Notes: generated by a model from the letters alone, not told the origin. A stretch of DNA of 64,000 nt from an uncultured Pseudanabaenaceae cyanobacterium (GCA_938017515.1 CALIJJ010000019.1:1415-65414); one strand, 5' to 3'. Positions 4,640-51,131 are shown, numbered from the stretch's first letter. Numbers and translations: made by a program.

Positions 4640-5578
4640 ATGAAGCTCTTCTTTTACCGCCGTAGCGACGACAAGCCCAACTACGGTGACGAACTCAACC
4701 TCTGGCTCTGGGATCAAATCATTCCCGATATTCTGGACGAAGATGAGTCCACTGCATTCTTCGGCATCGGTACCCTGTTGAACAACCTGGTGAAAGAGCG
4801 GGCTCCGAACGCCAAGCAAATTGTCGCCCTTGGAACCGGGGCAGGCTACAACAAAGGCATGCCCGACATTGACGAAACCTGGAAGATCTACTGTCTACGG
4901 GGTCCTATCTCTGCCCTGAAGCTGGGCGTTGATCCCAAGCTTGCCATTACCGATGGCGCTGCGCTGCTCAGTCGTCTCTACAAGCCCACCGGCGTCAAGC
5001 GCTATAAGTTCTCCTACATTCCTCACTTCACCCAGTCGATCATCGCAAACGATGATTGGCAGGAAATCTGTGACGAGTTGGGCATTCACTACATTGATGC
5101 TCGCCGCCCGATCCACGAAATCATCAAGGAAATTGGGGAAACCGAGGTACTGCTGGCCGAAGCCATGCACGGCGCTATCACCGCAGACACCCTGCGCACC
5201 CCTTGGATTCCGGTCCTGACCAGCCAGTGGCTCCTACCCTCCAAGTGGCTTGACTGGACCATGTCCCTCAACATGGAATTCCAACCCCATCCTGTGACGG
5301 GCTTAGATCCCATTGAAGAGCGTTACTTGCTGAAGAACCTACGCGGCATCAAGGGCAGCCGTACGCTGGTGAAGAAAGCCGCCGCGCGCTGGATTAAAAA
5401 GAAGCAAGCCAAGATGAAGATGGAGAGCATCATGAAATATGGTGTGCCTCAGCTCAGCGACGACACCCTGTTTGAAAGCAAGGTGTGCCAGCTCGAAGAA
5501 AAGGTTGAGGAATTCAAAAAAGACGTGGCATCCGGCATGTTCGCCAGTAAGGACAAGGAAACTGCAATGACGGTCTAA
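4640..5578 (+). CDS. polysaccharide pyruvyl transferase, ExoV-like
   Basis: 312 aa. N-terminal motif KPNYGDELNLWLW matches the NFGDxLNxWLW motif of ExoV/pyruvyl transferase family proteins. Confidence 0.55.
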   Translation: MKLFFYRRSDDKPNYGDELNLWLWDQIIPDILDEDESTAFFGIGTLLNNLVKERAPNAKQIVALGTGAGYNKGMPDIDETWKIYCLRGPISALKLGVDPKLAITDGAALLSRLYKPTGVKRYKFSYIPHFTQSIIANDDWQEICDELGIHYIDARRPIHEIIKEIGETEVLLAEAMHGAITADTLRTPWIPVLTSQWLLPSKWLDWTMSLNMEFQPHPVTGLDPIEERYLLKNLRGIKGSRTLVKKAAARWIKKKQAKMKMESIMKYGVPQLSDDTLFESKVCQLEEKVEEFKKDVASGMFASKDKETAMTV

Positions 5579-5839
5579 ACGCCTGTCAACAGCACAGTGC
5601 TGGAGGGATAGACTTCATTCCTCCGATGCAGTGGCTAGGATTCCAATCAGACAGGATGGGGCATTCAGGAGAGTGCCCCATCCTGCATTGAATCGCAGTT
5701 TTGATTAGCTGTTGAGACTGACTGTGCTGTTGAAACCGACTGTGATGTTGAGACCGACCTGTGCCGCTGAACCCTGAGTTGCTGCTGATACCCGCTTGGA
5801 CAAACGCGGTTTGTCTTTACCCAATCGTTTTTTACTCCC

Positions 5840-6784
5840 ATGAAACTGATTCTGTTGCTGTTGGGCCTTGGCCTGTTGCTATCGTTGCTGGCTGAACTGG
5901 TTTTGCGTGTGGCCTTTGGTTTTGGCAATCCGCCGCTGTACCAGGGTGACGATCGTATTGGCTACCTGCTCCAGCCCAATCAACAGGTCAAGCGTTTCGG
6001 CAATCGGATTCACATCAATCAGTATCATCAGCGCACGGAGGCGATCGCCCCCACCCCTGCCGAAGGCACTCGCCGCGTTTTTATCATTGGGGATTCCATT
6101 GTCAACGGTAATTGGTGGACGGATCAAGCCGATGTCCTGTCAGAGGTTGTGAAGGGTCTGCTCAACCAAGCCAACCCCCAGGTCTCCCACGAGGTACTGA
6201 ACGCCTCCGCCAACTCCTGGGGACCGCGCAATGAGCTGGCCTATTTAGAGCGATTTGGGATGTTCGGGGCGGAGACGTTGGTATTGGTGATTAACACCGA
6301 TGATTTATTTGCAGTGGAGCCCACAGCCGTGCCCGTGGGACGCGATCGCAATTATCCCAACCGTCGCCCCGCCTCCGCCCTCAGCGAAATCTTTAGCCGC
6401 TATCTCCGTCGCTCAAAGCCCGACCCTGTGCTGGAAGCCTCCCGGCAGGAAGAGGGCGATCGCGTCCAGCGCAACTTAGAGGCCATTGCCAAGATTCAGG
6501 CAATGGCCCAAGCCAACGATACCCGCTTCCTCATGGTCATGACGCCCCTGAAGCGAGAGCTAGAGGTGAATGGTGGCCCGCTTGACTACGAAATTCAGGA
6601 ACGTCAGCGTCTGGCAGACTTTGTTCAAACTCAGCTCATCCCCTTTGTCGATGTGTTGCCGATTCTGAACCAAGAAATTGCCACAAAAAATGTCCCGGCA
6701 GAAGGACTCTACCGGGACCATATTCATCTGAGTGTTTTAGGGAACGAGATTCTGAGCCGTAGGATTGCAGACAAGTTACTGTGA
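5840..6784 (+). CDS. SGNH/GDSL hydrolase family protein with an N-terminal membrane anchor or signal
   Basis: 314 aa. Hydrophobic N-terminus and a GDSL block VFIIGDSIVNGNWW. Its context suggests a polysaccharide O-acyl esterase or transferase role. Confidence 0.6.
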   Translation: MKLILLLLGLGLLLSLLAELVLRVAFGFGNPPLYQGDDRIGYLLQPNQQVKRFGNRIHINQYHQRTEAIAPTPAEGTRRVFIIGDSIVNGNWWTDQADVLSEVVKGLLNQANPQVSHEVLNASANSWGPRNELAYLERFGMFGAETLVLVINTDDLFAVEPTAVPVGRDRNYPNRRPASALSEIFSRYLRRSKPDPVLEASRQEEGDRVQRNLEAIAKIQAMAQANDTRFLMVMTPLKRELEVNGGPLDYEIQERQRLADFVQTQLIPFVDVLPILNQEIATKNVPAEGLYRDHIHLSVLGNEILSRRIADKLL

Positions 6785-6830
6785 TTGGCTTGCTGCTGCG
6801 GGGCTCGTGCCCTGGCTTGTCGGAACGACC

Positions 6831-7967
6831 TTAGTTGGCGGCGATCGCTGCCAGCTCCACCTCTTCCAGGGCATGGGCCGGTCCTGCAGGAGGTTCCTGG
6901 GATGCCTCCGCATGGTGCCATTGGGTCCCATCCAGCGCCATCTGCTCAATGGAGCTGGCCAAGCGTAGGGCCTTGAGTCCCTGTTCACCGCCCACAGAAG
7001 GCTGGTTGCCCCCCCGGACACAGCCCACAAAATGTTCCAGCTCCGCATTGAGCGGCTCAATGTTGCTGGTGTAAACCCTCTCCACCAGACCGTCCTGGCG
7101 ATAGAGAACCTGACCATAGTTGGTCGAGTAATTGGCTGTAACCTGGCGGTGAATCAAGATTTCGTTATTGAGGAAATCTGCCTCCGTTAGGGAATTACGG
7201 CAGTGGGCCGAGATGCGGCGAATTTTACGATGGGTAACCTTGCTCGCCGTCAGGGTAGCCACGATACCGTTGGTGAAACCAATGGTGGCCGTGACATAGT
7301 CCAGCAGTCCTGAATCAGAGGCGCGGCTACCGCTGGCCGTCAGTCGGGACACCGGGGACTTGGCCAGCTCCAACATCAAATCGATGTCGTGGATCATCAG
7401 GTCGAGCACCACGGACACATCATTGGCGCGGTCCGCATGGGGGCTCATGCGATGGGCTTCCAGAGCCAGAATCTCTTCTGTCTGCAGGACCTTGCTTAGT
7501 TCTTGGAAAGCCGGATTAAACCGCTCAATGTGGCCCACCTGCAAAATACAGTGGTGCTGAGCAGCGGTGTTCACCAGCATTTCAGCCTCATGAATCGTTG
7601 AGGCAATGGGCTTCTCAATCAAAACATGGATGCCCGCTTTGAGGCAGGTCATACCGACTTGGTAGTGGAAGCGCGTCGGGACGGCAATACAAACGGCGTC
7701 TACGTGGGGCAGGAGGTCTAGGTAATCCTCAAAGAAACGAACCCCATATTTTGCGGCGGTGTCTAACCCCCGCTCGATGGAGACATCGGAAACTCCAACC
7801 AGCTCTACGTCCTTGAGGAGGCTCAACACCCGAGCGTGGTGCTGGCCCATGTTGCCAATGCCGATGACACCGATCTTCACCGGTGAGACGGGCTCACTCT
7901 TGCGGCTATGTAACTGCGTTGAAAAATCTGCTTGTCTCGGGGACATGCGCTCTTTACTCCGATTCAC
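6831..7967 (-). CDS. Gfo/Idh/MocA family NAD(P)-dependent oxidoreductase, possibly a sugar-nucleotide dehydrogenase
   Basis: Rossmann motif KIGVIGIGNMGQHHA, the EKP motif LIEKPIA and the HIERFNPA block. Acidic or Ala-rich C-terminal tail. Confidence 0.7.
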   Translation of the reverse strand: MNRSKERMSPRQADFSTQLHSRKSEPVSPVKIGVIGIGNMGQHHARVLSLLKDVELVGVSDVSIERGLDTAAKYGVRFFEDYLDLLPHVDAVCIAVPTRFHYQVGMTCLKAGIHVLIEKPIASTIHEAEMLVNTAAQHHCILQVGHIERFNPAFQELSKVLQTEEILALEAHRMSPHADRANDVSVVLDLMIHDIDLMLELAKSPVSRLTASGSRASDSGLLDYVTATIGFTNGIVATLTASKVTHRKIRRISAHCRNSLTEADFLNNEILIHRQVTANYSTNYGQVLYRQDGLVERVYTSNIEPLNAELEHFVGCVRGGNQPSVGGEQGLKALRLASSIEQMALDGTQWHHAEASQEPPAGPAHALEEVELAAIAAN

Positions 7968-41990: not shown

Positions 41991-42169
41991 GGATTGCACA
42001 CCGAGATAAGGGAGAAGTCGAACATTGAGTACTCTTGGTCTGAACTCCGATATGACTCAATAGAATTCTGATGGGCCTTTCGTCTGTTTGTAGAAACTCT
42101 AAAAGCTATGATTTTTTAGAGCTCTAAAAGCTATGATTGGTACCTCAATATTAAATTCGGTGAGCTCCT

Positions 42170-43039
42170 ATGGAATCTTATATTACCTATAATGTTGGGG
42201 GCTATGATCTGGCATTTCCATCAGATCATATGATGCCGCGATATCAAGAAAAGTGGCGCCGATACGATACAGCACTTGCTTATATCGGGCAGATAGTTTT
42301 TTCCAAATATCCTGGCTCTTCTGCAATTGATATTGGAGCCAATGTTGGCGATAGTGCAGCATTGATTCAGCAATATCAAAAGGTGCCAACCTTGTGCATT
42401 GAAGGTAACCCTGAATTTATTCAATATTTAGAACATAACGCTTCTGTTATTGAAAATATCGAGATTGAAGACTCTTTTCTCGGCAAAGATGGAGAAAAAA
42501 TATCTTTGGAACACATGCGTAGTGAAGGAGGTACTGCTTCCGTGACTAACGCTGTAGAGAAAGATGGATTCTTTGTGTCGTATGCAAAAAGTTTGGAGTC
42601 AATTCTAGACCATAGACCATTCTTCAATAAATCAAAGCTACTGAAAATTGATACTGACGGCTTTGACTTTCTTATTATTCAAGCCTCTCATGAATTTATT
42701 CGAAAGAGCCAGCCAGTAATCTTTTTTGAGTATGATATTACGTTCTCACAATCAGGAATTCTTGAAGCAAAAGAAGCTATAGAGCTGTTGATTCGTGTTG
42801 GATATAAGCGATTTATCTTCTATGATAATTTTGGAAACTATTGCATGAGCTTTAGTGATAGTCAGTTAGAAATTCTAGAAGACCTTAACAGATTCTTGTT
42901 CTCTAATCGATTTTTGAGTGGTACACCTTCTATCTACTACTATGATGTTTGTGCATTCTCGCAGGAGGATGAAGAGCTATTCACTGCTGTTAGAGTGTTA
43001 GAGTCAGAAGCAACTGATCAATGGCTGAAAGCACAATAG
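42170..43039 (+). CDS. FkbM family methyltransferase
   Basis: 289 aa. The IDIGANVGDSA motif is typical of the FkbM methyltransferase domain. Strongly AT-rich coding sequence. Confidence 0.65.
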   Translation: MESYITYNVGGYDLAFPSDHMMPRYQEKWRRYDTALAYIGQIVFSKYPGSSAIDIGANVGDSAALIQQYQKVPTLCIEGNPEFIQYLEHNASVIENIEIEDSFLGKDGEKISLEHMRSEGGTASVTNAVEKDGFFVSYAKSLESILDHRPFFNKSKLLKIDTDGFDFLIIQASHEFIRKSQPVIFFEYDITFSQSGILEAKEAIELLIRVGYKRFIFYDNFGNYCMSFSDSQLEILEDLNRFLFSNRFLSGTPSIYYYDVCAFSQEDEELFTAVRVLESEATDQWLKAQ

Positions 43040-43224
43040 CTCTGCATAATCGTTGGCTATTTCCAGTTTCAGCAAGGCTGTTTGAATAAGGAGGGCATAC
43101 ACCACGTGAGCGAAGGTAGATATCTTTAGCTTAGAAAGATAGTAGAAAATATTTCCTTATTTGCACTCGATTACTGTCCTGAAAACGGTTGTGTCCTCTA
43201 AGATGTGTACGAAAAAAATGTAAT

Positions 43225-44028
43225 CTATGCTCCGTAGCCTGCATCTAAATACTCTTGGACTTCATCTAAAGAATTACAATATTTCCCAATAATCTGATAT
43301 TTTTTTTCATTTGGGGCACGTTCACAAAGGCTCAGATAGGAACGCTCACCAGCCCAGCCATTAAAACAAACTCGAAGATGAAGTGCCGCAGTATCTTCGA
43401 GCAGATCCGGAAGGTTAGAAAAGAAGTTTTGATAGAATTTTAGATAGCGGCTCTCACATAGATAGGCTTTGTTAAATCCCAAGGCTACACAATGAATTTT
43501 CGGGTTTGCACGAAGATAATCAAACATCGCATGGGTGCAGCATGCATGAGGCACGCTAAAAATATCATCTAAGACAATTAAGCCAAAGGGGGCGAGGCAC
43601 CGAAAGGATAGCTCTAAATCTGAATAGACAGCATCATAGCTATGCTCACCATCAATATGAGCATAGCGAACCTGTGGAATATGGTCGCCAAAAAAATGTG
43701 AGTCATTTTTTGCTACAAAACGAGAATCATATTGAAAATAGTTGAGCTTTTTAGGCTCAATCTGTGAGAACTCGATGACCCTAGCACTAACTGCATTAGT
43801 GTCTGCATAGGGATCGATCAACAAGCATCGTTCATCATCATCAAGAGCTGCTGCTAGTAGCGCTGCTGTGTAGCCATATAAGACTCCTATCTCCAGAATA
43901 TCCCCCTGTACTTGATGAAAACACTGATAACCCAGAAGTTGATCAAAAATATGGAGATTCCAATCTCCAAGCAAGGCATTTGGGAATGATTGCTTGAATT
44001 TGCTCGTAAGATTTGTTTCAGTAGACAT
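43225..44028 (-). CDS. class I SAM-dependent methyltransferase (TylF/MycF-like O-methyltransferase fold)
   Basis: 267 aa. EIGVLYGYTAALLA glycine-rich SAM loop and the IDGEHSYDAV block. AT-rich. Confidence 0.55.
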   Translation of the reverse strand: MSTETNLTSKFKQSFPNALLGDWNLHIFDQLLGYQCFHQVQGDILEIGVLYGYTAALLAAALDDDERCLLIDPYADTNAVSARVIEFSQIEPKKLNYFQYDSRFVAKNDSHFFGDHIPQVRYAHIDGEHSYDAVYSDLELSFRCLAPFGLIVLDDIFSVPHACCTHAMFDYLRANPKIHCVALGFNKAYLCESRYLKFYQNFFSNLPDLLEDTAALHLRVCFNGWAGERSYLSLCERAPNEKKYQIIGKYCNSLDEVQEYLDAGYGA

Positions 44029-44085
44029 TTCTGAGGATTTTATAAATGACTTGACGGGATTTTAAGGAAAATATGTCTGAGATAT

Positions 44086-45249
44086 TTAGAGCATATTAAC
44101 TAAAAACTTTTCAACATCCGCTGTCGCTTTTTCTTGGCTAAATCGGGAGCAGGCATTTTCCTGTCCACGCAGAGCGACACTCCTCCATATTTCCTTGTCT
44201 TTGGAAATTGAAGCAAGAACATTAGACAGGTCAATGGGGTCTTCTGGCTCAAAGAAAAAACCATCTTCACCATGAGAGTTGACAATTTCCTTTGCTCCTC
44301 CCGTTCCACTGGTTACGAGTGTTAACCCGGCTGCCATTGCCTCAATTTGGCTTATTCCAAAAGGCTCATCGAAGCGTGAAGGAAATACAAGAATATTGTG
44401 GCTTCTGTAGAGTGCCACTAGCTCTTTTCTTGAAAGGGCACCCACCAGTTTTACTTTTTTACTCAGGCCTTCTGACTCAAGAAATGATTGAATTTCATCT
44501 ACATATCCTGGTACGAATGTCCCTCCAGCAATTGTCGCATTAAATTCAACCTCATTCGAATGGAGTAAGTATAGTGCTTCTATCAAGATGTCAATTCCCT
44601 TGTAGGGAGCAACGAGACTCGCGTAGGCAATATTGAGATGTGCCTGATCAGGTATATTTTTAGAATAAAAATCGTCAACACAAGCACCTGGATAGATTGT
44701 TTTTGCACCAGTCATTGGATATTTAGTGGATGCTAGATTATAGCGAATCCAATCGCTACAGGTGATGTATCTAAATTTTGAGTTCCTTGGGGCTGATTGC
44801 CAGCTATATCCTGGTTGAGCATTCATGACGTAATGAGCCGTCGGAATATTGTGCTCTAATATTTTGTGGAGTAATGATGCATCGAATTGAAGCAGGTCAA
44901 TATTTCCTACTAGACAAACATCTGGATGGAATTGCTCAATTGTCTCTTCAATCGCAGAAAGATTATGAAGATTACTAGATTGAATTGTCTCAGTTTCAAA
45001 TAGTTGTGTTCCTTGCTCAGACCACTTCCCAAATAATTTTAGTTCTCTAGAGATAGGTGGATCTGAGAAATTTTGATCATATGGTGCGTATAAGTAGTCT
45101 GCATCACCACACAAAACCTTAACTTCATGCCCCTCCTTTTGGAGGATGCGCCCAAAGTCGGCCATCGATCGCTCATATCCCCCCAATGATTGAGGAGGAT
45201 ATAAGTTATTAATCAGTAATATTTTTAGCTTAGAATTTTGAGGCATCAT
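44086..45249 (-). CDS. glycosyltransferase family 4 (GT-B)
   Basis: 387 aa. N-terminus KILLINNLYPPQSLGGYER and a C-terminal EX7E-like region (FPSRFDEPFGISQIEAMAAG). AT-rich. Confidence 0.7.
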   Translation of the reverse strand: MMPQNSKLKILLINNLYPPQSLGGYERSMADFGRILQKEGHEVKVLCGDADYLYAPYDQNFSDPPISRELKLFGKWSEQGTQLFETETIQSSNLHNLSAIEETIEQFHPDVCLVGNIDLLQFDASLLHKILEHNIPTAHYVMNAQPGYSWQSAPRNSKFRYITCSDWIRYNLASTKYPMTGAKTIYPGACVDDFYSKNIPDQAHLNIAYASLVAPYKGIDILIEALYLLHSNEVEFNATIAGGTFVPGYVDEIQSFLESEGLSKKVKLVGALSRKELVALYRSHNILVFPSRFDEPFGISQIEAMAAGLTLVTSGTGGAKEIVNSHGEDGFFFEPEDPIDLSNVLASISKDKEIWRSVALRGQENACSRFSQEKATADVEKFLVNML

Positions 45250-45264
45250 GTTAGTCGTTAAAAA

Positions 45265-47460
45265 CTATTTCTTGTCGCAGTAAATTTCCCACATTTTCAG
45301 GAATGCATTTTCCATCTCTTTGGTAAAGGCTAGGCTATTCCAAAGAGGCGCGGAGTGTTTGGAATATTTCAATCTCTGAGATATTTTTCTACGAAGTCCC
45401 CCGTCTGTTCCAAAACTTACTCCCCAATCGACATATTCTGCAAATGACGTAGCGACTCCTTCATGAATGCCTGCATTCCTTAAAAAAGTATAGCCATTAC
45501 GGGACGAAAACTGACGACCCATCTGAGTCACAATGGGAATCTCCATCCACATAGCTTCTAAATTTGTCGTGGCTCCGTTGTAGGGATATGTGTCAAGAAT
45601 CACGTCTGCTATGCTTAAGTTGGCTCGATGGGTGAGCTCTGAATTGTCCCTGTCCAGAAAGCGTAATCTCTCGGGCGACACATTTGATTTTCTGGCAATA
45701 GTCTCGAACAATGACCGTACAGCTCCTCGGTGACCTAATCCTTTTACCAATAGATAACTATTCGGAACTTGCCTAAGTATATCTATCTGTGCCTGAACAA
45801 CATCTGTATTGAGCTTAATGGCATTCTGCATGGTTAGGTAGACGACTGAATCCTCTGGTATACCGAGTTTTTGACGTTTTATGCTAGGAACGCCAACTTC
45901 AAAACCGTCAACCGCAAGGTACACGTCTGATAGTCGCCAAATCTTTTCCTTGTACCAGGCTTCGGCTTCCTCTGGTAGGACGTTTGGATCTGCTATGAAA
46001 TAGTCAATAGTCGGCAATTCAGATGCATCAAAGCCTAGCCAAGTCACCTGTATTGGAGCAGGCTTAAGGCTCAATACGGCACTACTAACATCTAAAGTTA
46101 AACTATCCAAGTCAATAAGAATATCAATTTCGTCTTCGTAAATTTTCTGGGCAATCTCCCTAGAATTCACACCGACTGCATAAAAGCATGAGACATAGGG
46201 GACGAAAAAGCGATTTGCAAAAGTAAGATTGTCACTTTGTGTTATGAAATATGCGTATGTTTCGAAGCGTTCTCGATCATGATTTTGGATTAACCACCTC
46301 GATAACCAGCCGACTGAATGATTGTTGAAACAATGAGATAGATAGCCAATTTTGATTTTACTGTTGCTTCTCCTTTTTTTTTCTACTCTGGCTTTTTGAT
46401 GTTGAAAACGTGTTGATTCTGGGAAAACTTTATCGCAGCAACTTTGAGATAGTTCTCGTTGATATCGTCGGATTAACCTTGGGTTGTCTGATGTATATTG
46501 AAGTATAGATGGAGAATTAAGAAGTAGCCATATTAAGTCGTTGTCTGCTGATTTAGAAGGATTTTTCTTTAGGAAACCATCGAGATTATTCTTGTGCGCA
46601 GAAACTAATTCATCAAGCTTGTCCCATTCTAAGCAGGATTCCTTCGAAAGGCGTAGGCGCAAGTAGCTTCCCAATAAAGATGCTTCCTCTGTCGAAGCTA
46701 GCTGACAGAAATTTTCTACGCGAACGATCGCTTTCTCAAATAAATTCTCATGCTTGTAAAAAGAAACAAGGTTGATCAGAATCTTGTGATTGCCAGGAAG
46801 GGCGTCGTAAAGTTGTTCTGATACGGCAATAGCTAATGGATAGTTAAAATGAAAATGTCCAACTTTGATAATAATGGGCATCAATTCATCAGCTAATAAG
46901 CCATGTTGCTGCCTGCTAAGTCTTGAGGTGAGGGCGCATATGATGCGGCCAAAATCAGTTGCATCGGGCTGTAGCTTTAACACCGCCGAAAATAGCTGAA
47001 CTAATCTAGGAGCATCATCTTCAGTAATATTCTCTTGTTGCAGAGTTCGCTCTATCTTTAGATATAGTTCATCATTAGATTCCGTTAAATCTAGCTCTAA
47101 AGATAGCCTTAGTAAGGCTAAAAGATTATATGGGTTGACTGGTCCAAATTCTCGAATATATTGACGTAAGCTCCAAGCGCGCAAAAAATCTTCTCTCTCC
47201 TCATGTTGATTTGCTGCACGGCTTAGAATGGTGGCGAATACTTGAGATTGAGCCTCTGTCTCTTCCTCTGGAACTTGAGACATGCCCAGTATCCAGATTG
47301 TTTGAGCCTCATCTTCGTTACTTGTTAAAAGGGCTGCTGTGCCAGCATACCAATAGTTTGTGAGGCATTGATCTTCTGCTTCAATTAGTTGCCTATAGAT
47401 AGCAAGGCTGTCTAAATAACGACCTTCATCAAAAGCAGTTTTTGCTAATTCTTGGTTCAT
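45265..47460 (-). CDS. TPR-repeat protein fused to a GT41 (O-GlcNAc-transferase-like) glycosyltransferase domain, paralog B
   Basis: 731 aa. The helical N-terminal half is repeat-like. The C-terminal half carries the blocks IGYLSHCFNNHSVGWL, DILIDLDSLT, LVKGLG and DTYPYNGATTNLEAMWMEIPIVT. AT-rich. Confidence 0.65.
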   Translation of the reverse strand: MNQELAKTAFDEGRYLDSLAIYRQLIEAEDQCLTNYWYAGTAALLTSNEDEAQTIWILGMSQVPEEETEAQSQVFATILSRAANQHEEREDFLRAWSLRQYIREFGPVNPYNLLALLRLSLELDLTESNDELYLKIERTLQQENITEDDAPRLVQLFSAVLKLQPDATDFGRIICALTSRLSRQQHGLLADELMPIIIKVGHFHFNYPLAIAVSEQLYDALPGNHKILINLVSFYKHENLFEKAIVRVENFCQLASTEEASLLGSYLRLRLSKESCLEWDKLDELVSAHKNNLDGFLKKNPSKSADNDLIWLLLNSPSILQYTSDNPRLIRRYQRELSQSCCDKVFPESTRFQHQKARVEKKRRSNSKIKIGYLSHCFNNHSVGWLSRWLIQNHDRERFETYAYFITQSDNLTFANRFFVPYVSCFYAVGVNSREIAQKIYEDEIDILIDLDSLTLDVSSAVLSLKPAPIQVTWLGFDASELPTIDYFIADPNVLPEEAEAWYKEKIWRLSDVYLAVDGFEVGVPSIKRQKLGIPEDSVVYLTMQNAIKLNTDVVQAQIDILRQVPNSYLLVKGLGHRGAVRSLFETIARKSNVSPERLRFLDRDNSELTHRANLSIADVILDTYPYNGATTNLEAMWMEIPIVTQMGRQFSSRNGYTFLRNAGIHEGVATSFAEYVDWGVSFGTDGGLRRKISQRLKYSKHSAPLWNSLAFTKEMENAFLKMWEIYCDKK

Positions 47461-47474
47461 TGCTTTTGTGATTC

Positions 47475-49667
47475 TTATAAAGACTTACTATTACTATGAG
47501 ACTGCCACATCGCGAGATAGGCACTTTCCATGTCTTGTGTAAACTGTCTTGCATTCCACAGCGGAGCAGAACGCTTCGACTGTTTTAATTTCCAGGCAAT
47601 GTCATCTCTTAGTTCTTTATCAAGTCCAAGACGGATTCCCCAATCGACATATTCTTCATTAGACCAAGCAATTCCTTCCTTAACTCCTGCATTCTTCAGC
47701 ATTGTGTAGCTATTTCGAGCCGAAAATTGTTGTCCCACCTTTGTTACAATGGGTCGTTCCATCCAAAGAGCTTCCATTGTTGTAGTTGCTCCATTATAAG
47801 GATAAGTGTCGAGGACAATGTCTGATACAGATAGGTTGCCACGATGAATCTCTGATGATGAATCAATTCCGAGAAAAATAATTTTTTCTCGGGCAATATC
47901 CATATCCTTCGCAATGTCAGTAATGTATTGCTTGAGCATTTCTGTTGCACCCAATCCTTTGATCAGGAAGTAGCTATTGGGTACAGCCTTAATGATTTCT
48001 AATTGAAGCTTTAGCATCTCTGGATTTCGCTTCATCCCATTCTGAGCACTGAAATACAGAATAGAATCTTTTTCTAGGCCGAGACTTTTTCTAGATAACG
48101 TGGGTGGTGCGACCTCAAAACCATCTATTGCGACATAGGTAGACGGGAGGCGAAATATTTTTTCTGAATAGTAGCTGTCAGCATCTTCCGGAAGAACATA
48201 AGGATCAGCAATGTAGTAATCTATGCTTGGAATTCCAGATGCATCCCACCCTAGCCATGTTGCCTGAATTGGTGCGGGCCTAGAGCATAGAACTTCACAG
48301 CTTATGTCAAAGGTAATGCTGTCCAAGTCAATCAAAATGTCAATCTTATCTTGCATTATTTGATTGGAAATTTGGTTGGCACTATCAAGGCCAAATCGAT
48401 GAGCTGTATCTGAGCTTTGCTCATACCAATCTTGGATTGGATCGCTTCGTTCCAAGGCATTAACAAAATAAGTGAAAATTTCGAATTTCTCATGATCGCG
48501 ATTGTTGAATAAGGAACGAGCTAGCCAGCCAACAGAATGTCTTCTGAGACAAGATGATAGATATCCAATCCGCAGTCGATTTGACGGATTAATTTCAATG
48601 CTCTGAGGTGGATTGAAGTGGTCCATCTCCCTTTTGCAAAATGATCCTATTGCGTTAATGTAGTCTCGATTAGACTCTGGAGAATCTTCTAGGTAAGGTA
48701 ATACAAAACCACCTGAAAAAAGCCAAGAAACACTTGCCTTTCTTAGAGCTGAATCGCTATTGTTTAGTAGTTTAGAAAGAAATTGTTTATAATTTTTAGC
48801 TTCTTCCTGTGCCGCATCCCAGGCACTTCCTGATTGAATGTATGTTTTGATTAGTATATAACTGCAAACAACGTTCTCAACTAATGTTTTGGATAGCTCA
48901 CAAGATGACTTAGCTAGGGAAATGGCTGCATCAAAATCTCCAATGGATATTTTGACTGTGATGATGAGCCTTAGAAGATCAAGATGATCAGGCCTATAGG
49001 AGTAACAAAGATCTAGTAGGCGGAGTGCTCTTAGTGGTAGGCGGTGAGCATAATAAATAGTGAGTGAAGCATCGAGGATTGTGTCTAGAAAAAGAGAATC
49101 ACTGGTAAAAATGCGTGCACAAATCTCTGATAGTTCATAGGTGAGATCTAGAAGAGGAAACTGCTGAAGAGATATCTTCAATGTCTCTATTAATGTTTCT
49201 CGGTAGTCCTCCAGCACATTTATTTCAATGCTTTCAGATAGTTCAGATAATGTTTTTGATAATTCTAAAGATTGGTAAAAATCAGCTGTCAATAGATTGA
49301 GTTGATGGGAGAGCCGGAAGGCTTCTAACTTGTTCTGTAAGTCAGACTCATTGAACTGCTGGGCATGACAACGAAGTAACCAAGCATGCTCTAAGGAGTC
49401 TTGTTCTTCTTGGCGTATTGCTTCTTTGTTGAGAAGCCTGAATATATCTAAAGACCATTGTTCAACCTGTTCATCTGAAGCTTCATAGAGTTGAGACATC
49501 CAAGCCAGTTGCGCTGTCTCTTCGTTGCCCTCTAGTAGTTGAGCAATACCGAGCAACCATACGAAGGTGACTTTTCCAGTCTCTTCAAAATTCTCCTGGC
49601 AGAACTCTGCGATTTGAGCATATTCTCCCTGTGCAAACAAGGAGTCGAGTTCTTCTAGGGATGTCAT
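47475..49667 (-). CDS. TPR-repeat protein fused to a GT41 (O-GlcNAc-transferase-like) glycosyltransferase domain, paralog A
   Basis: 730 aa. The C-terminal half is collinear with paralog B (IGYLSSCLRRHSVGWL, DILIDLDSIT, LIKGLG, DTYPYNGATTTMEALWMERPIVT). The N-terminal half is divergent. AT-rich. Confidence 0.65.
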   Translation of the reverse strand: MTSLEELDSLFAQGEYAQIAEFCQENFEETGKVTFVWLLGIAQLLEGNEETAQLAWMSQLYEASDEQVEQWSLDIFRLLNKEAIRQEEQDSLEHAWLLRCHAQQFNESDLQNKLEAFRLSHQLNLLTADFYQSLELSKTLSELSESIEINVLEDYRETLIETLKISLQQFPLLDLTYELSEICARIFTSDSLFLDTILDASLTIYYAHRLPLRALRLLDLCYSYRPDHLDLLRLIITVKISIGDFDAAISLAKSSCELSKTLVENVVCSYILIKTYIQSGSAWDAAQEEAKNYKQFLSKLLNNSDSALRKASVSWLFSGGFVLPYLEDSPESNRDYINAIGSFCKREMDHFNPPQSIEINPSNRLRIGYLSSCLRRHSVGWLARSLFNNRDHEKFEIFTYFVNALERSDPIQDWYEQSSDTAHRFGLDSANQISNQIMQDKIDILIDLDSITFDISCEVLCSRPAPIQATWLGWDASGIPSIDYYIADPYVLPEDADSYYSEKIFRLPSTYVAIDGFEVAPPTLSRKSLGLEKDSILYFSAQNGMKRNPEMLKLQLEIIKAVPNSYFLIKGLGATEMLKQYITDIAKDMDIAREKIIFLGIDSSSEIHRGNLSVSDIVLDTYPYNGATTTMEALWMERPIVTKVGQQFSARNSYTMLKNAGVKEGIAWSNEEYVDWGIRLGLDKELRDDIAWKLKQSKRSAPLWNARQFTQDMESAYLAMWQSHSNSKSL

Positions 49668-49779
49668 GTCATACAGAAGTGCTTCAGCTTTTATATTCTA
49701 TGCAATTTTCATACTGCGAAGGTAAAATTTATTGCTCCTTGTATTTCTGTGTTCATTATGAACTGGCCTAAAATCAGAA

Positions 49780-49813
49780 AACGGCAACCCGATGAATATC
49801 TCAGGTTGCCGTT
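49780..49813 (-). terminator. hairpin terminator downstream of the pilin gene
   Basis: aacggcaacc-cgatgaatatctca-ggttgccgtt. Perfect 10 bp stem. The minus strand continues into a T-rich tract. Confidence 0.55.
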
Positions 49814-49865
49814 TGCCTATTAGGACTGTCGTCTATCAGCAATGCTAGATAGGGGCTGTCAGAGT

Positions 49866-50420
49866 TTAGGTTGCATCGTTCAGGGCCTTGGAGCCATTTG
49901 GGCAGGCCATTACAGTCGTTTGAGCTGCAGCTGCATCGAAACCTGTTGCAACAACCGCAACTGCACCAGTAGCAGCGACGTTTGCTTCGCAGAGAATACC
50001 TGCAGCCGTTGCGTCAACTTCAGTGGACTCTTGATACAGTTGAACTGCACCGCGGTATGCTTTCACAGAAGAGTCTCTGCTTGTAGAGTTGATTTGAGCA
50101 CCGCCAGCGCCTGTCGATTCAATGGTGTAGGTGTAGTACTCAGTTTGAGTCGGTACGCCAATGCCGAGTTCACCAAAGCTAGAACCAAACTGACGATTGT
50201 CTAGGCGATGAGCCTGCTGGGCACGGTTTACAGAACCAGTGTAGGTCTTAGCCTCAGACTGACGCGCCTTTGCTGCTTGGTTGAGGAAAGAAGGCAGGGC
50301 GATGGCAGACAGAATACCGATGATGATGATAACCACCAACAGTTCGATTAGGGTGAAGCCGCCTTCTTCCTTCTTATTGAGAAGGTGGCTCAGAAACTTA
50401 GCTTTAAATTCGTTCTTCAT
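49866..50420 (-). CDS. pilA: type IV major pilin, PilA1-like
   Basis: Prepilin leader MKNEFKAKFLSHLLNKKEEGG then FTLIELLVVIIIIGILSAIALPSF. This is very close to the Synechocystis PilA1 N-terminus. The C-terminal region has two Cys (a D-region disulfide) and is Ser/Thr/Ala-rich. Confidence 0.85.
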   Translation of the reverse strand: MKNEFKAKFLSHLLNKKEEGGFTLIELLVVIIIIGILSAIALPSFLNQAAKARQSEAKTYTGSVNRAQQAHRLDNRQFGSSFGELGIGVPTQTEYYTYTIESTGAGGAQINSTSRDSSVKAYRGAVQLYQESTEVDATAAGILCEANVAATGAVAVVATGFDAAAAQTTVMACPNGSKALNDAT

Positions 50421-50665: not shown

Positions 50666-50740
50666 CGTCGGAAGACATCTCGGGATATCTCAGAATCCGT
50701 AGCGCCGTCTGCACCCAGAAAACAATAAAACTCCCCTGGT

Positions 50741-50769
50741 CTCTGATAGACCAGGGGAGCTCTGCGATC
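50741..50769 (-). terminator. rho-independent terminator downstream of the 115 aa gene
   Basis: ctcccctggtct-ctgat-agaccaggggag. A T-rich tract follows on the minus strand. Confidence 0.6.
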
Positions 50770-50783
50770 CAGAATGCCTAATT

Positions 50784-51131
50784 TCAGGGGTCTGAATTCT
50801 TCGTATCTGAGTTTCGAGCTTCAGCTTGTTCTTCGGTTGGGTGCAGTAAAGCCTCCAAACGTTCTTTGGACCAAGAGTCAATGGGATAGGAGAAGGCAAC
50901 AATCTCTGATAACCGGATGAGCCAGACGGCGCGTTCGCAGAGGGCACTATCGTCCGTATCATCTACAAATAGACAGAGAATCTCGACGAATTCGGAGTCA
51001 AGGTGGACAGGGACGCCGTAAAAATTGCTGCTGGCGAGGCGGATGCGAACTTCAGTGCCTTGCTGCAATGCTTCCTGAAGTCGTTTCCGCAGTAGGTCCG
51101 AGATGCTAGCAGACTGTTTGGCCTGGGTCAT
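50784..51131 (-). CDS. hypothetical small protein with an Sm-fold-like segment
   Basis: 115 aa. The central segment EVRIRLASSNFYGVPVHLDSEFVEILCLFVDD has the alternating beta pattern of Sm/LSm domains. This is weak inference. Confidence 0.4.
   Translation of the reverse strand: MTQAKQSASISDLLRKRLQEALQQGTEVRIRLASSNFYGVPVHLDSEFVEILCLFVDDTDDSALCERAVWLIRLSEIVAFSYPIDSWSKERLEALLHPTEEQAEARNSDTKNSDP

Follow-up and report, generated by a model that had tools for sequence, protein, structure and literature searches.

Tandem GT41 glycosyltransferase genes beside a cyanobacterial pilin gene: a probable two-enzyme form of the pilA–ogt arrangement

Why should a cyanobacterium keep two OGT-like glycosyltransferase genes side by side next to a single pilin gene? 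The question is posed by a 64,000-nt stretch of DNA (GCA_938017515.1 CALIJJ010000019.1:1415-65414, listed under an uncultured Pseudanabaenaceae cyanobacterium; hereafter the window), in which two open reading frames (ORFs), GT41-A (A; 47475..49667, 730 aa) and GT41-B (B; 45265..47460, 731 aa), follow a pilA-like gene. Positions are those of the whole window and genes are read on the minus strand unless stated. A first-pass annotation, made from the sequence, had described A and B as tandem paralogs 14 nt apart, each with a tetratricopeptide repeat (TPR) half and a GT41-like half, and had proposed that divergent repeat halves direct the pair to two targets or two sites. The description was borne out: the two ORFs are full-length collinear GT41 paralogs, the blocks IGYLSxCxxxHSVGWL, DILIDLDS, KGLG, DTYPYNGATT and PIVT all occur in both translations, and the spacer from the stop of A to the start of B (47461..47474; GAATCACAAAAGCA on the coding strand) is 14 nt long. 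The proposal fared less well. On the sequence evidence we think it probable that the locus is a pilin O-glycosylation island, a two-OGT, accessory-rich form of the pilA–ogt arrangement known from other cyanobacteria; it is not a new kind of system.

The family assignment is clear from sequence and model alike. Pfam Glyco_transf_41 (PF13844) scores 166.5 bits in A and 158.3 bits in B (gathering cutoff 25), and searches of PDB sequences match human OGT (hOGT; E-values down to 1.4e-46), SPINDLY (SPY; 1.8e-41), the Thermobaculum OGT (TtOGT; 1.3e-41) and the Xanthomonas OGT (XcOGT; 4.4e-30). AlphaFold2 models (pLDDT 89.5 and pTM 0.88 for A; 85.1 and 0.84 for B) have about 8–9 helical hairpins over residues 1–350, at matching positions in the two proteins, followed by the alternating strand–helix lobes of a GT-B domain at A 365–730 and B 369–731; A is accordingly divided into a helical TPR-like half (~1–351) and a GT-B half (~365–730), and B has the same architecture with a more divergent catalytic half. 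The top 50 Foldseek hits for each model are all SPY, OGT, TtOGT or XcOGT (E down to 2e-28), and the matches to Arabidopsis SPINDLY, human OGT, Thermobaculum OGT and Xanthomonas OGT span the whole length, TPR region included. The best whole-length structural matches, Arabidopsis SPINDLY and human OGT (PDB entries 8DTF, 7Y4I and 3PE3), are matched across both the TPR solenoid and the GT-B domain and share the phosphate-binding Lys and the Thr-Thr pair with A and B, although the identity is only 18–22%, the intervening domain of human OGT is missing in A and B, and hOGT H920 is an Ala (within NGATT). The TPR label itself stands on the helical hairpins of the models, on Foldseek and on the family profile, which matches consensus-TPR proteins at profile positions 11–65 and 208–265 (E 1.8e-17 to 1e-3), but not on Pfam, where A matches no TPR model and B matches TPR_19 below threshold only; the N-terminal half is probably TPR-derived, with a degenerate sequence signature. 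Chains of the HMW1C/NGT type are absent from the PDB sequence matches at E ≤ 1e-3 (single sequence and profile) and from the top 50 Foldseek hits, and membership of A and B in that branch of GT41, N-glycosyltransferases without a TPR region, was discarded.

Both proteins have kept the residues expected of an active enzyme. A phmmer alignment to human OGT, together with a 94-sequence family alignment (A, B and 92 homologs), places hOGT K842 at K546 in A and K549 in B, H558 at H377 and H381, T921/T922 at T628/T629 and T631/T632, R904 at R609 and R612, and D925 at E632 and E635; the human residue numbers rest on the offset of a 3PE3-type chain in the alignment and on the known human sequence. These catalytic and nucleotide-binding positions are invariant across A, B and the 92 homologs. 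All 78 family-invariant columns, the catalytic Lys among them, are retained in both proteins, and neither looks like a pseudo-enzyme. The catalytic lysine corresponds to K445 in the Ogt of Synechococcus elongatus, reported to be essential since a K445A mutant is inactive (PMC9306852). Neither a signal peptide nor a convincing transmembrane segment was found in A, B or the three other enzymes encoded beside them (maximum 19-residue hydropathy 0.8–1.8, the highest value lying on a Rossmann motif); A and B thus appear to be soluble, cytoplasmic enzymes of the OGT/SPINDLY type.

What might such enzymes act on? The gene ahead of A encodes a 184-aa pilA-like type IV major pilin (49866..50420, minus strand; Pfam Pilin_GH 5e-24, N_methyl 2.5e-8) with the prepilin motif GFTLIE, the only prepilin motif in the window, and with 29 Ser/Thr among the 163 residues of the mature part. 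Its identity to the pilA genes found ahead of OGT genes elsewhere in the cyanobacteria is 48–59%, and it is presumed to be the acceptor of A and B. Homologs of A and B include thousands of ~740-aa cyanobacterial proteins aligned at 98–100% coverage and annotated 'O-linked GlcNAc transferase, SPINDLY family'. We sampled 80 homologous loci from species-representative genomes, and in ~72 of these a pilA homolog lies immediately upstream of the OGT gene on the same strand. An ogt–pilin adjacency is also reported for 77 of 201 cyanobacterial genomes (PMC9306852). The same source states that S. elongatus Ogt (Synpcc7942_0051), encoded beside pilA 0048/0049, is required for GlcNAc glycosylation of PilA and for normal piliation (Suban et al. 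2022, PMC9306852, where Sokol and Olszewski 2015 is cited), a link that a 2025 review restates (PMC12288463). In Nostoc punctiforme, pilA (Npun_F0676) and ogtA (Npun_F0677) have consecutive locus tags (PMC9306852), and both the accumulation of PilA and motility reportedly depend on OgtA (Khayatan et al. 2017, cited in PMC12288463 and PMC9306852). Conserved synteny and published genetics (PMC9306852) give strong backing to the connection of the pair with the pilin. Between pilA and A there are 198 nt (49866 to 49667), and within this gap the terminator and inverted-repeat scans both return a hairpin with a 14-bp stem followed by a T-run (49779..49814, minus strand), which is likely to be the pilA terminator. 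Its position fits the report that N. punctiforme pilA and ogtA are under different sigma factors (PMC6495340).

The comparison with the two studied relatives shows what is shared and what is added here. S. elongatus PCC 7942 Ogt combines TPR and GT41 regions, as A and B appear to, and like them is encoded beside the major pilin gene, is apparently cytoplasmic with no secretion signal, and keeps the conserved catalytic lysine (K445 there, K546 in A and K549 in B); at ~70 kDa it is shorter than A and B, and the likeness is drawn by published description. In S. elongatus there is one ogt, separated from pilA by a hypothetical gene, whereas the window has two deep-branching paralogs accompanied by a GT4 enzyme and two methyltransferases in a low-GC island. 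The Nostoc-type proteins of ~736 aa that follow pilA (L002, L007, L012 and others) are 40–44% identical to A and B over 98–100% of their length; the Nostoc loci examined have one OgtA-type gene, with other nearby GT41 types on the opposite strand, as opposed to the two in tandem seen here.

The three accessory genes continue the row. B is followed by a group 1 (GT4) glycosyltransferase gene (44086..45249, 387 aa, minus strand; Pfam Glycos_transf_1 1.3e-28) and then by one for a TylF-like class I S-adenosylmethionine (SAM) methyltransferase of the Methyltransf_24 family (43225..44028, 267 aa, minus strand; Pfam 8.9e-15); an FkbM-family methyltransferase gene (42170..43039, 289 aa, plus strand; Pfam Methyltransf_21 3e-7, NCBIfam TIGR01444 49.7 bits against a cutoff of 37.7) converges on the row. 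No NCBIfam model matches A, B or the Methyltransf_24 protein. As the spacers in the row are only 14 nt (A–B), 15 nt (B–GT4) and 57 nt (GT4–Methyltransf_24), these four genes are plausibly co-transcribed, with their promoter lying between A and the terminator of pilA. A scan of the pilA–A spacer for consensus sigma-70 promoters came back empty, which is uninformative for cyanobacterial promoters of the group-2/3 sigma type. The first-pass annotation had read translational coupling into the 14-nt spacing; we saw no Shine–Dalgarno-like purine run in that spacer by eye, and coupling of A and B is a guess.

On the reading that we favour, A and B, in each of which a TPR-like solenoid that binds peptides is joined to a catalytic GT-B domain, would both use a nucleotide sugar to glycosylate Ser/Thr residues of the single PilA in the cytoplasm, before the globular domain of the pilin is exported. 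They would be non-redundant, serving different sites or using different donor sugars, and may form a physical pair. The GT4 enzyme would then add a further sugar, extending the glycan, and the two methyltransferases would O-methylate it. The donor could be UDP-GlcNAc, GDP-fucose or another nucleotide sugar; the sequence cannot tell which.

Two further kinds of system bear on this scheme. In Microcystis aeruginosa, the CT-pilin cluster resembles the island in having a GT41 OGT (BH695_0839) and an FkbM protein (BH695_0838) encoded beside a pilus-subunit gene, and CT-pilin is reported to carry O-linked monosaccharides of 160 and 174 Da on Ser/Thr (PMC12397347). The Microcystis subunit differs in being a non-type-IV 'tubular' pilin of another fold, and its cluster has one OGT and no GT4 gene. 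By our own arithmetic, masses of 160 and 174 Da would presumably fit mono- and di-methyl deoxyhexose, among other possibilities. In Proteobacteria, glycosylation genes also adjoin the gene of a filament subunit (Pseudomonas TfpO/PilO, Neisseria PglL and the Pseudomonas flagellin islands), and such blocks are often compositionally atypical and strain-variable. The pilin systems among these use a periplasmic membrane O-oligosaccharyltransferase and a lipid-linked glycan. Pfam and hydropathy analysis found no Wzy_C-type transferase, flippase, lipid-carrier enzyme or any membrane protein among the island genes; a periplasmic system of the PilO/TfpO or PglL kind was discarded on these grounds, and the lack of a membrane transferase or flippase in the island points instead to stepwise cytoplasmic transfer from nucleotide sugars, unlike PilO/PglL.

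Several points weigh against the reading of the locus as a pilin O-glycosylation island. The globular domain of the pilin ends up outside the cytoplasm, and action by a cytoplasmic enzyme before translocation is assumed. A and B are at most 40–44% identical to any other protein, and function is thus transferred over a long distance; we infer their link to Synpcc7942_0051 and Npun_F0677, the two proteins studied experimentally, from the loci of the genus Nostoc and the locus tags. The equivalent of hOGT H498 is not alignable in A or B. Lastly, S. elongatus ogt mutants are reported to be pleiotropic, and other substrates are possible (PMC9306852).

Has the repeat half of each enzyme specialised, as first proposed? 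BLASTP aligns A 11–728 with B 10–731 at 36% identity (E = 8e-152), and a global alignment gives 23.7% identity over A 1–355 and 48.0% over A 356–730; in the MAFFT family alignment the values are 22% and 48%, and across methods the N-terminal halves are 21–24% identical. The strong divergence of the N-terminal halves beside conserved C-terminal halves is therefore real. The N-terminal halves alone are still significantly similar (25%, E = 1e-15), and the collinearity thus spans the whole length of the pair and not only the C-terminal half. At the DNA level the best-conserved stretch is 71% identical over 222 nt. Each protein is closer to foreign orthologs (A 41–44%, B 40–41%) than to its neighbour, which leaves a recent duplication in place unsupported. 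In neighbour-joining (NJ) trees, A and B form long basal branches that fall within the pilA-linked clade or at its base, apart from other GT41 types, and their grouping as sisters has bootstrap values of 18% (C-terminal half), 9% (N-terminal half) and 46% (full length); as both branches are long, an old duplication and sister genes with accelerated rates are inseparable.

That the TPR halves specialised after duplication, so that A and B recognise two targets or sites with unchanged catalytic halves, is a rather doubtful explanation, even though it is the best placed of the alternatives. The contrast between 21–24% and 48% identity favours it, as does the fact that, of 49 family-conserved N-terminal columns, A departs at 18 and B at 17, the positions being different. 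The TPR domain of eukaryotic OGT contributes to substrate choice, and this is a further point in its favour; the role of the domain was reportedly described by Iyer and Hart in 2003 (cited in PMC9306852). The asymmetry, however, is the background of the family. Against the 80 orthologs, A has an identity of 0.25 in the N-terminal half and 0.565 in the C-terminal half, and B 0.24 and 0.52; the orthologs among themselves have 0.37 in the N-terminal half at 0.65 in the C-terminal half. The N-terminal half evolves about twice as fast as the C-terminal half across the family, orthologs included, and the pilA-flanking single-copy orthologs have the same ratio. In a quadratic fit of N-terminal on C-terminal identity over 983 between-locus pairs, the A–B pair has 0.212 observed against 0.189 predicted (z = +0.57, slightly above expectation), and the excess N-terminal divergence peculiar to this pair was rejected on this control; the 103 between-locus pairs with a C-terminal identity of 0.44–0.53 have a median N-terminal identity of 0.22, and other tandem pairs scatter above as well as below the line (z from −1.2 to +1.9). 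Because the asymmetry is the normal rate difference of the family, it carries no specific information on sub-functionalisation of A and B: the divergence is indeed uneven and biased to the N-terminal half, as the first-pass annotation had expected, but this could not separate specialisation from the background rate, and the step from a divergent repeat half to two targets or sites is not specifically supported. The catalytic halves have diverged too. B departs from 34 and A from 25 of 184 conserved C-terminal columns (other members: median 4, maximum 18), and, given this drift of both catalytic halves away from the family consensus, A and B might just as plausibly differ in donor sugar as in acceptor site. 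There is also a single pilin gene in the window, and the number of GT41 modules across loci shows no association with pilA copy number (Fisher p = 0.35, in a small and non-independent sample); the idea of two OGTs for two pilins was rejected on these two counts.

How unusual, then, is the tandem arrangement? Not very: tandem, triple and fused GT41 modules after pilA recur in public contigs. In the second sample, 69 metagenome loci seeded with the pilin, ~24 have GT41 after pilA, of which ~8 are single, 6 tandem (L088, L109, L116, L119, L125 and, with three copies, L120) and 10 fused doubles of ~1,490 aa. In L120 (10684–17190) three tandem OgtA-type genes (757, 654 and 739 aa) follow one pilA, with C-terminal halves 65–71% identical to one another. 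Second OgtA-type copies are present in the genome sample in L044 (Laspinema), in L062 (Planktothrix, the copy being split) and probably in L050, and the NJ tree indicates several independent duplications. Fused proteins of ~1,470–1,504 aa, with two complete TPR–GT41 modules, are encoded directly downstream of pilA in 11 loci (L092, L094, L096, L101, L102, L115, L118, L123, L128 and L151 from metagenomes, and L017:402-4859 from the genome set). Module 1 of these proteins is OgtA-like and module 2 is a more distant GT41, its C-terminal half being ~35% identical to A and B (as against 48–52%).

The fusion in 11 loci argues that two GT41 modules work on one pathway, and it is also the first of three observations that would suit another explanation, in which A and B are the diverged subunits of one obligate hetero-oligomeric enzyme acting on the same sites, one of them perhaps mainly structural or regulatory. 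The second is that OGT and SPY structures in the PDB are dimeric (the entries include 'Human O-GlcNAc transferase Dimer'), and the third is the tight packing of the two genes, 14 nt apart. We regard such an enzyme as unlikely. Every invariant catalytic column is kept in both proteins, which is unexpected for a purely structural partner, and module 2 of the fused proteins is of a different, more distant GT41 type. On this last account the fusion argument reaches B by analogy only, a point that also counts against the favoured reading.

The accessory genes recur as well. Orthologs of the GT4 enzyme, 47–52% identical, lie directly downstream of pilA–OGT in L003, L025, L028 and L071, that of L028 being fused to a methyltransferase, and FkbM methyltransferase genes converge on the row in L044, L088, L094, L119, L123 and others; genes for methyltransferases of other kinds also recur near pilA–OGT. 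In L115 a fused double GT41 is followed by homologs of both island methyltransferases (51–52% identity; 51% for the Methyltransf_24 homolog); there, a 732-aa protein (5151–7349) joins a nucleotide-diphospho-sugar transferase domain (PF03407) to an FkbM domain and precedes the Methyltransf_24 homolog. An FkbM protein of ~330 aa (hmmsearch E < 1e-130) is encoded within 6 kb downstream of pilA–OGT in L026, L027, L033, L035, L038, L051, L065, L073 and others. At E ≤ 1e-5, FkbM hits occur at 21 of the 80 loci with one OGT, at 3 of the 7 with tandem copies and at 5 of the 6 with a fused protein, all of these loci being phylogenetically non-independent. On the other side of pilA, a class I SAM methyltransferase of ~440 aa is encoded immediately upstream on the same strand in L003 (7598–8926), L044 (7765–9090), L062 (7866–9197) and L071 (7907–9223), with Pfam confirming it for L003 and L044; it is absent from the window, where pilA is preceded by a 115-aa ORF (50784–51131) with no Pfam or NCBIfam match, followed by a very strong 16-bp hairpin terminator (50727–50763).

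A third explanation removes the pilin altogether: the pair would carry out regulatory O-glycosylation of various cytoplasmic proteins, and the adjacency to pilA would be incidental or reflect co-regulation only. Effects of S. elongatus ogt mutations on biofilm inhibitor production and sensing (PMC9306852) and the reported modification of multiple proteins by the bacterial GT41 enzyme HmwC of Yersinia (PMC11329713) lean this way. We find it improbable nonetheless, given that the order pilA-then-OGT holds in ~90% of the 80 loci across many cyanobacterial orders, that a GT4 enzyme and two methyltransferases typify the making of a decorated surface glycan, as opposed to a reversible switch based on one sugar, and that no O-GlcNAcase-like gene was found by Pfam among the annotated island genes. 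It is very improbable that one of the two copies is decaying or redundant and lacks a role of its own: B does depart from more conserved C-terminal columns than any of the 92 other members (34 against a maximum of 18) and has the lower model confidence (85.1 against 89.5), but both ORFs are intact over their full length, neither has lost any of the 78 family-invariant columns, equal GC content at third codon positions (GC3) implies long co-residence with no loss, and tandem copies have been retained in several unrelated lineages.

Where did the block come from? All five enzyme genes lie in a low-GC island (~42000..49800) with a GC content of ~0.40, against ~0.54 elsewhere in the window. GC3 is 0.32–0.36 in the five enzyme genes and 0.61–0.69 in the flanking housekeeping genes (aat, purD, a histidine kinase gene and ilvD); pilA is intermediate (GC 0.50, GC3 0.47). 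The uniform composition suggests that the five genes arrived, or have long travelled, together, and judged by its composition the block looks to have been acquired horizontally as a unit. The named homologs of A and B are all cyanobacterial but for one labelled Actinomycetota, and the host accordingly appears to be a cyanobacterium of ~54% GC. A and B have no relative above 44% identity among 5.8 billion clustered proteins, which points to an unsampled donor lineage. An assembly chimera is an unlikely cause of the low-GC block: both junctions are present at >99.5% identity in other assemblies (99.8% in L082 and 99.97% in L001), possibly from the same or related samples. A mobile-element origin is unsupported, with no tRNA found at the island borders, no transposase or integrase found by Pfam on the five island genes and no terminal repeats in the repeat scan of the island. 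At the left edge, an exact 17-nt direct repeat (CTCTAAAAGCTATGATT; 42097–42113 and 42122–42138, copies 25 nt apart) sits in the aat–FkbM spacer precisely at the GC drop, and it may be left over from the insertion junction or serve a regulatory purpose. Neither an 'empty site' nor a close relative of the host was found, the only related contig, L082, being of the same strain and ending 200 nt inside the island, and the pilA-seeded metagenome scan returned no pilin above ~60–70% identity. Assemblies of the same strain break inside the island: L082 at window position 42375 (200 nt past the FkbM start) and L001 (window 46927–50328), of essentially the same strain, inside B. These breaks may reflect a drop in coverage or strain variability.

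A broader view of the probable pilin O-glycosylation island, which we put forward tentatively, is that the slot downstream of pilA is a horizontally exchanged, hypervariable 'pilus glycan' locus resembling O-antigen and flagellin islands, in which GT41 modules occur in two copies, in three or as fusions, in company with GT4 and methyltransferase genes. A and B would then be non-redundant, perhaps as a heterodimer or with different donors, and with the GT4 enzyme and the two methyltransferases would build a methylated multi-sugar coat on the single pilin in the cytoplasm, the cassette having come from an unsampled low-GC cyanobacterial lineage. We did not find a variable glycosylation slot of this kind, with duplicated and fused GT41 modules, in the literature searched, and the pattern may deserve a survey.

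By itself the locus opens no new question, since similar arrangements are common in public data; it is one usable example, in which two intact paralogs lie in a compact putative operon beside a lone pilin gene. Glycosylation of pilin by a cytoplasmic OGT-type enzyme is accepted in cyanobacteria and is mechanistically thin. Loci with two, three or fused GT41 modules and sugar-tailoring enzymes suggest a pilus glycan of greater complexity, and with greater differences from lineage to lineage, than the picture of a single GlcNAc implies, and such variation could bear on recognition by phages and grazers, on biofilm behaviour and on motility.

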